A stretch of 64,000 nucleotides of DNA from Escherichia coli (GTDB lineage: Bacteria > Pseudomonadota > Gammaproteobacteria > Enterobacterales > Enterobacteriaceae). Every line of letters begins with the position of its first letter. Position 1 is the stretch's first letter. Made by a program: the position numbers and the translations under genes. The notes under the pieces are model-generated. The model searched no databases and was not told where the DNA came from. It saw only the letters and a list, made by a program, of their open reading frames with translations. Of this stretch, positions 14,037-14,169 are shown piece after piece. The stretch lies in assembly GCF_003334765.1 (NCBI RefSeq), contig NZ_QOWT01000009.1; one strand, 5' to 3'.

Positions 14037-14065
14037 GATGCTCTCCCAAATATGAAATCTCTTGC

Positions 14066-14090
14066 TGGCATTACAAGAATCATGCCAAAA
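14066..14090 (-). promoter_or_regulatory. candidate sigma-54 (-24/-12) promoter for pspG
   Basis: Minus-strand TGGCATGATTCTTGTAA resembles TGGCAC-N5-TTGCA about 30 bp upstream of pspG ATG; also forms an inverted repeat TGGCA-N13-TGCCA. Confidence 0.5.
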
Positions 14091-14169
14091 ATAATCTATT
14101 GATTTAACAGCAAAACGCCCCGCGACGGTGCGCAGGGCGTGGTGAATTTGACTACTTTTTGGTGAAAAG

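Follow-up and report, generated by a model that had tools for sequence, protein, structure and literature searches.

The enhancer-dependent sigma-54 promoter of pspG in the dusA-pspG spacer of Escherichia coli

The intergenic spacer of 133 bp between dusA and pspG (positions 14037-14169 of the window, the 64,000-nucleotide stretch of an Escherichia coli contig that was analysed as a whole) almost certainly holds the known enhancer-dependent sigma-54 promoter of pspG. An earlier note, made from the letters of this DNA alone, had proposed a promoter of this type in the interval 14041-14169, which is nearly all of the spacer. Its interpretation of the pspG promoter is right but already known, pspG having been an acknowledged part of the PspF/sigma-54 regulon since 2004; the dependence of the gene on PspF and sigma-54 was reportedly established by Lloyd et al. 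2004 and by Green and Darwin 2004, and is in agreement with later results from ChIP, SELEX and in vitro experiments. Our own observations concern the motifs, their statistics, their conservation among species and their spacing. They basically reveal a sigma-54 promoter, a PspF-type enhancer, an IHF consensus site and the intrinsic terminator of dusA arranged within the short spacer.

The 801 bases around the spacer match E. coli K-12 MG1655 with 100% identity, and the same query found a match in 5,426 of the 5,426 complete E. coli genomes searched, with a coverage of at least 80% in 5,419. RefSeq places qorA on the plus strand here and the two genes flanking the spacer, pspG and dusA, on the minus strand. 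The coding sequence of pspG (13794..14036, minus strand) is an open reading frame of 80 amino acids plus stop, annotated in RefSeq as 'envelope stress response protein PspG', the product of which scores 90.1 bits against the equivalog model for PspG (NCBIfam TIGR02975; cut-off 53.7). The upstream gene on the same strand, dusA (14170..15207, minus strand), is likewise found both in RefSeq and as an open reading frame and ends with the stop codon 14172..14170. A Shine-Dalgarno sequence, GGGAGAG (14041..14047, minus strand), was read directly 4 nt ahead of the pspG ATG and is kept across species (conservation deciles 8-9). The gene for the activator, pspF, is absent from the window; K-12, which has the same sequence as the window here, carries it beside pspABCD, and the organism thus encodes PspF.

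The sigma-54 promoter

On direct reading, the minus strand at 14088..14071 is TTGGCATGATTCTTGTAA, and its part at 14087..14071, TGGCATGATTCTTGTAA, constitutes a sigma-54-type motif. The promoter proper, TTGGCATGATTCTTGTA, occupies 14072..14088 (minus strand) with the -24 GG at 14086/14085 and the -12 GT at 14074/14073. Compared to the consensus TGGCAC-N5-TTGC, the sequence TGGCAT-N5-TTGT contains the GG and the exact spacing of one helical turn, but GT instead of GC at -12. The earlier note had recommended a scan with a sigma-54 matrix, for which a weight matrix was trained on 41 intergenic sigma-54 sites from the literature, pspG being excluded. The pspG promoter reached 17.1 bits and rank 1 among the 127,968 positions of the 64 kb window, the median of the training sites being 15.7 bits; it kept rank 1 with 16.4 bits when pspA was also dropped from the training set. 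Sites with a comparable score occur at a mean of 0.36 per random 64 kb sequence, and the motif found here is correctly oriented and lies about 50 nt 5' of the pspG ATG. At this frequency, the placement of a correctly oriented site about 50 nt ahead of a particular start codon goes far beyond chance expectation. The claim of a -24/-12 promoter in front of pspG is therefore borne out by the top matrix match of the window, which is also identical to a published site, OS40 (see below).

The next-best matches of the matrix in the window are located at 5420-5436 (plus strand, CTGGCGCGTAAGCTGCA, 14.4 bits) and at 20590-20606 (plus strand, CTGGCACATGACTTGCC, 13.9 bits). We do not regard them as known sigma-54 sites, as neither is contained in the published high-stringency ChIP-seq list.

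The transcription start was placed at 14061 (minus strand), 12 nt 3' of the -12 base and 19 nt from the motif centre, according to the rule of PMC4591121 (19 nt downstream of the motif centre), by which it is predicted to within about 2 nt. A start at this position would presumably give a pspG leader of 25 nt, which by itself is unstructured when folded.

Occupancy of the promoter by sigma-54, binding of PspF and dependence on PspF are taken from published work. The sigma-54 ChIP-seq study of Bonocora et al. (PMC4591121) lists site OS40 with the motif TTGGCATGATTCTTGTA, letter for letter the same as the motif of pspG, on the sense strand and 25 nt from the gene; the site is flagged as experimentally confirmed (EcoCyc), has a FAT of 15 and is the only high-stringency sigma-54 site in the coordinate range of the window. 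The homologous Salmonella sequence, TGGCATGATTTTTGTAAG, was enriched 39-fold in ChIP-chip (PMC3844500), and genomic SELEX with the RpoN holoenzyme produced a match in the dusA>pspG spacer (PMC8743547). Binding of PspF has been reported for the enhancers of both pspA and pspG (PMC3709507, PMC3041696), with one UAS and a 20-fold induction described for pspG (PMC3709507; the supplement is without coordinates for the pspG regulatory region). The regulon of PspF consists of pspA-E and pspG (PMC3041696), in E. coli as well as in Yersinia (PMC3467454). The pspG promoter has, moreover, been used in vitro with sigma-54 and PspF1-275 for open-complex formation, and its -24 and -12 elements are common to pspG and pspA (PMC4641871). 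The proposal that pspG depends on PspF despite being unlinked from the psp operon thus agrees with published experiments, and also with the presence of a pspA-like enhancer.

For the comparison across species, 80 loci were collected from one PspG scan of reference genomes, giving 81 sequences together with the window; they span Escherichia, Citrobacter, Salmonella, Enterobacter, Klebsiella, Raoultella, Kluyvera, Leclercia, Yersinia, Rahnella, Brenneria and others. The motif TGGCAYG-N4-TTG is present 5' of pspG in 80 of the 80 loci from other species, in one of them as a single-base variant. This variant is found in Citrobacter werkmanii NBRC 105721 (L026:1151-1168), where the -24 element reads TTTGTCATG with GG changed to GT and the remaining promoter intact; the change may reflect either an error of the assembly or a promoter-down mutation that arose naturally. 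The Salmonella and Yersinia loci of the set carry the same sigma-54 motif as E. coli pspG, and in Salmonella Typhimurium and Yersinia enterocolitica the orthologous pspG promoters are sigma-54/PspF-dependent (PMC3467454, PMC3844500).

In 76 of the 81 pspG promoters the sequence of the -12 region is TTGTAA, and the consensus C at -12 occurs in a single one (1/81). At 14073 (minus strand) the base is T where the consensus has C, and the same T is found in pspA of E. coli and Salmonella. The GT at -12 counts against a canonical match to the consensus, but it is conserved and shared with pspA. The report that notes the shared -12 and -24 elements gives no reason for the conserved non-consensus base at -12 (PMC4641871).

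Downstream of the promoter the distance varies. From TGGCA to the ATG it is 50-62 nt in most loci, and long leaders were encountered in Yersinia vastinensis (L077, 206 nt) and in two Brenneria loci (L080 and L082, 109 and 132 nt). In Salmonella enterica subsp. arizonae and diarizonae (L015 and L032) the leader exceeds that of E. coli by about 33 nt, and a G+C-rich palindrome, CCCGGTAAGCGCAGTACCGCCGGG, lies between the promoter and the pspG ATG and looks like an inserted REP-type element.

Enhancer, IHF site and dusA terminator

Between variable stretches, both the conservation profile and a promoter-anchored gapless view of the sequences display four conserved blocks, namely the promoter, TCAA-N4-TTA, both arms of a hairpin, and GTAGTCAAATTCACCAC. 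Directly past the dusA stop codon there is a further but weaker one, TTTC.C.AAAA. The earlier note had expected enhancer or IHF sites in 14091-14169, and candidates for both were located there, the IHF site at 14104..14092 and a PspF-type enhancer at 14155..14139.

The proximal PspF enhancer (UAS), GTAGTCAAATTCACCAC, at 14139..14155 (-94..-78, minus strand) is the most conserved block apart from the promoter and resembles the pspA sequence TTAGTGTAATTCGCTAA; its position is in line with the roughly 80-125 bp from the start expected for an enhancer of the PspF regulon. In an in-register alignment of the enhancer regions of pspA and pspG, 19 of 33 positions match, and 14 of 500 shuffles were as good (p about 0.03), so that the likeness to pspA, taken alone, appears modestly significant as a matter of sequence statistics. 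In Brenneria the proximal enhancer is a clear palindrome, TTAGTC-N5-GACTAA (TTAGTCGTTTTGACTAA).

The IHF core consensus AATCAATAGATTA at 14092..14104 (-43..-31, minus strand) is a perfect match to WATCAANNNNTTR, a pattern with 9 matches in the window versus 3.0 expected. Its TCAA and TTA are kept across species and the four N positions vary. The candidate site is situated between the enhancer and the promoter, as expected of a promoter of the PspF regulon, and IHF would presumably act at 14104..14092.

In 57 sequences with a close match to the enhancer, all outside five distant genera, 67-69 nt separate it from TGGCA. In the five distant genera the distance amounts to 75-77 or 89 nt; one spurious match lies at 123 nt, and 18 sequences gave none. 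For the IHF core, the distance to TGGCA is 15-16 nt in 64 sequences; in 5 others, the distant genera among them, it is 25-26 nt, and no core was matched in 12. Brenneria and Biostraticola combine an enhancer at 75-77 nt with an IHF core at 25 nt from TGGCA, and Yersinia and Rahnella an enhancer at 89 nt with a core at 26 nt. Compared to E. coli, Yersinia vastinensis thus has the enhancer ~22 bp and the IHF site ~10 bp further upstream, in addition to a leader about 155 nt longer. The shifts in enhancer and IHF spacing between genera, about 10 or about 22 bp, correspond to whole helical turns, which is the prediction of face-of-helix constraints on an enhancer looped by IHF.

The third element of the spacer is the intrinsic terminator of dusA (14105..14140, minus strand), detected by a terminator scan between the enhancer and the IHF site. 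It is composed of a 10-bp stem (14140..14115), formed by ACGCCCTGCG-CACCGT-CGCGGGGCGT, and the subsequent tail TTTGCTGTTA, and the first bases of its 5' stem coincide with the last ones of the PspF enhancer. Folding of the hairpin yields -22.4 kcal/mol (z = -3.0). Across 49 species 97% of the cells are paired and compensatory changes occur in 8 of the 10 pairs, values that were reached by 0 of 500 shuffles and that none of the slid controls came close to.

Further upstream, the heptamer TTCACCA is found as a distal repeat at 14160..14166 (-105..-99, minus strand). It recurs 20 nt downstream within the proximal enhancer, and a repeat search also recovered the two copies as a direct repeat of TGGTGAA with a spacing of 20. 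This distal repeat adjoins the dusA stop codon, and the enhancer reaches the very edge of the interval delimited in the earlier note. Of the species, 60% have a direct repeat with at least 6 of 7 matching bases at a spacing of exactly 20, and none of the other spacings between 12 and 29 exceeds 15%; the two copies are altered together in Brenneria (GACTAAC in each) and in Rahnella (ACTATC in each). We tentatively consider that the pspG enhancer might be bipartite like that of pspA, with the distal TTCACCA serving as a functional PspF half-site instead of there being a single UAS; this is a possible reading but the less probable one. The two repeats found at the pspG enhancer stand in contrast to the one UAS described in PMC3709507. 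If the enhancer is bipartite, the loop between enhancer and promoter would enclose the dusA terminator in a compact and conserved arrangement.

The inverted repeat and other sources of pspG transcription

The earlier note had further described the promoter as embedded in an inverted repeat, TGGCA-N13-TGCCA. The repeat indeed exists, but its gap is 12 nt and not 13; it reads TGGCA-N12-TGCCA (14066-14070 and 14083-14087), which equals TGGCAT-N10-ATGCCA, with the second arm, ATGCCA, at 14066..14071 (minus strand). Its perfect 6-bp arms bracket the -12 element and might suggest a function of the structure, e.g. as an operator for a dimeric regulator or as an RNA hairpin modulating the promoter. 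Several observations speak against such a function. At least one 6-bp inverted repeat arises in 42% of dinucleotide shuffles of the intergenic region, and a stretch of 171 nt contains nine inverted repeats of 6 nt or more, among them TGGCAT-N10-ATGCCA. Of the 81 sequences, just two have the second arm, namely the window and a further Escherichia locus; it is absent from 79 of the 80 other-species loci, other Escherichia included, and the conservation drops to deciles 1-4 directly after TTGTAA. Moreover, the repeat lies upstream of the predicted start and consequently outside the sigma-54 transcript, and its plus-strand TGGCAT is devoid of a -12 partner. The collapse of conservation past TTGTAA and the restriction of the second arm to two sequences identify the repeat as a coincidence; a functional role is extremely improbable, and the notion of a promoter meaningfully embedded in a repeat finds no support, the second arm being a chance-level and non-conserved feature.

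A second sigma-54 promoter on the plus strand, starting from the other TGGCAT, was considered and rejected, as a -12 element is lacking at the required distance and nothing at this position appears among the twelve best matches of the sigma-54 matrix listed. Another inverted repeat, of 10 nt and 90% complementarity, connects 14033-14042 with 14076-14085 and thereby the promoter spacer with the pspG start codon. Pairing of the promoter spacer with the AUG in an RNA read through from dusA was likewise discarded, since the fold indeed pairs them, but with a stability no greater than that of shuffles (z = -0.3).

The expression of pspG might instead be due chiefly to a sigma-70 promoter within the spacer or to read-through of dusA, with the sigma-54 site bound but silent, as in the case of the many intragenic sites. 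Many sigma-54 sites of E. coli are without known productivity (PMC4591121), and dusA is located directly upstream on the same strand, so that some read-through is possible and could provide a basal expression of pspG. The strong terminator backed by covariation, however, separates dusA from the pspG promoter, and no sigma-70-like site was detected on the minus strand from 13650 to 14350. In addition, the sigma-54 site is correctly oriented at about 50 nt 5' of the ATG and conserved in 80 species, and the PspF- and sigma-54-dependent induction of pspG is published (PMC3709507, PMC4591121, PMC3041696, PMC4641871). A pspG transcript with a start near 14061 that is lost in rpoN or pspF mutants has reportedly been observed as well. 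We therefore consider a predominantly sigma-54-independent expression of pspG very unlikely.

Relation to known promoters and a scenario for activation

In sigma-54 promoters of the -24/-12 type the polymerase is generally held in a closed complex until the activator hydrolyses ATP, and in those looped by IHF, such as nifH, the activator site lies about 80-100 bp upstream with an IHF-induced bend. The pspG promoter has the same architecture as these nifH-type promoters. Unlike the activators of generic sigma-54 systems, PspF lacks a sensory domain and is subject to trans control by PspA, and its regulon is tiny, comprising pspA-E and pspG only (PMC3467454, PMC3041696).

The closest relative is the pspA promoter of E. 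coli. It has two PspF sites, UAS I and UAS II, as well as an IHF site, and shares its activator and its sigma factor with pspG. The -24/-12 elements of pspA (TTGGCACGCAAATTGTA) and pspG (TTGGCATGATTCTTGTA) are near-identical, with the unusual T at -12 in both, and an A/T-rich IHF region lies between enhancer and promoter in either case. The layout of the enhancers is also alike, in the order TTCRCYA, TAGT and TTCRCYA with the heptamers 20 nt apart, these being TTCGCCA and TTCGCTA in pspA and twice TTCACCA in pspG. Despite these similarities the two promoters deviate in several respects. The enhancer of pspG is 13 bp nearer to the promoter than that of pspA, a difference that does not correspond to whole helical turns; the pspG leader measures 25 nt and that of pspA 41 nt; and pspG has been described with a single UAS and an induction of about 20-fold compared to about 100-fold for pspA (PMC3709507). 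Furthermore, the pspA enhancer overlaps the divergent pspF promoter, whereas that of pspG adjoins the dusA stop codon and overlaps the start of the terminator stem.

Consistent with the published and the sequence data, we propose the following scenario for the activation of pspG. RNA polymerase with sigma-54 would reside in a closed complex on TTGGCATGATTCTTGTA (14088..14072), and PspF would occupy the enhancer centred near -86 (14155..14139), perhaps also contacting the half-site repeat at -105..-99. A bend introduced by IHF at AATCAATAGATTA (-43..-31, about -37) would then permit the ATPase ring of PspF to touch sigma-54. Upon membrane stress, PspA is expected to free PspF, and the promoter would be opened, with transcription starting near 14061 and producing the 25-nt leader. 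The terminator hairpin of dusA would be placed inside the enhancer-to-promoter loop and might insulate pspG from dusA transcription.

The pspG promoter is a standard reagent of sigma-54 biochemistry, and the value of the present analysis is primarily that of a positive control, in which the reading of a raw sequence recovered an experimentally confirmed promoter and located its accessory sites correctly. The comparison across species adds small refinements, namely the conserved T at -12, the spacing in helical turns, the candidate second half-site and the terminator in the loop. Among them, the conserved candidate distal half-site at 20 bp and the nesting of the terminator in the DNA loop are all that may go beyond the literature consulted; a contact of PspF with the distal repeat would, if true, be a minor refinement of the known picture of the PspF regulon.
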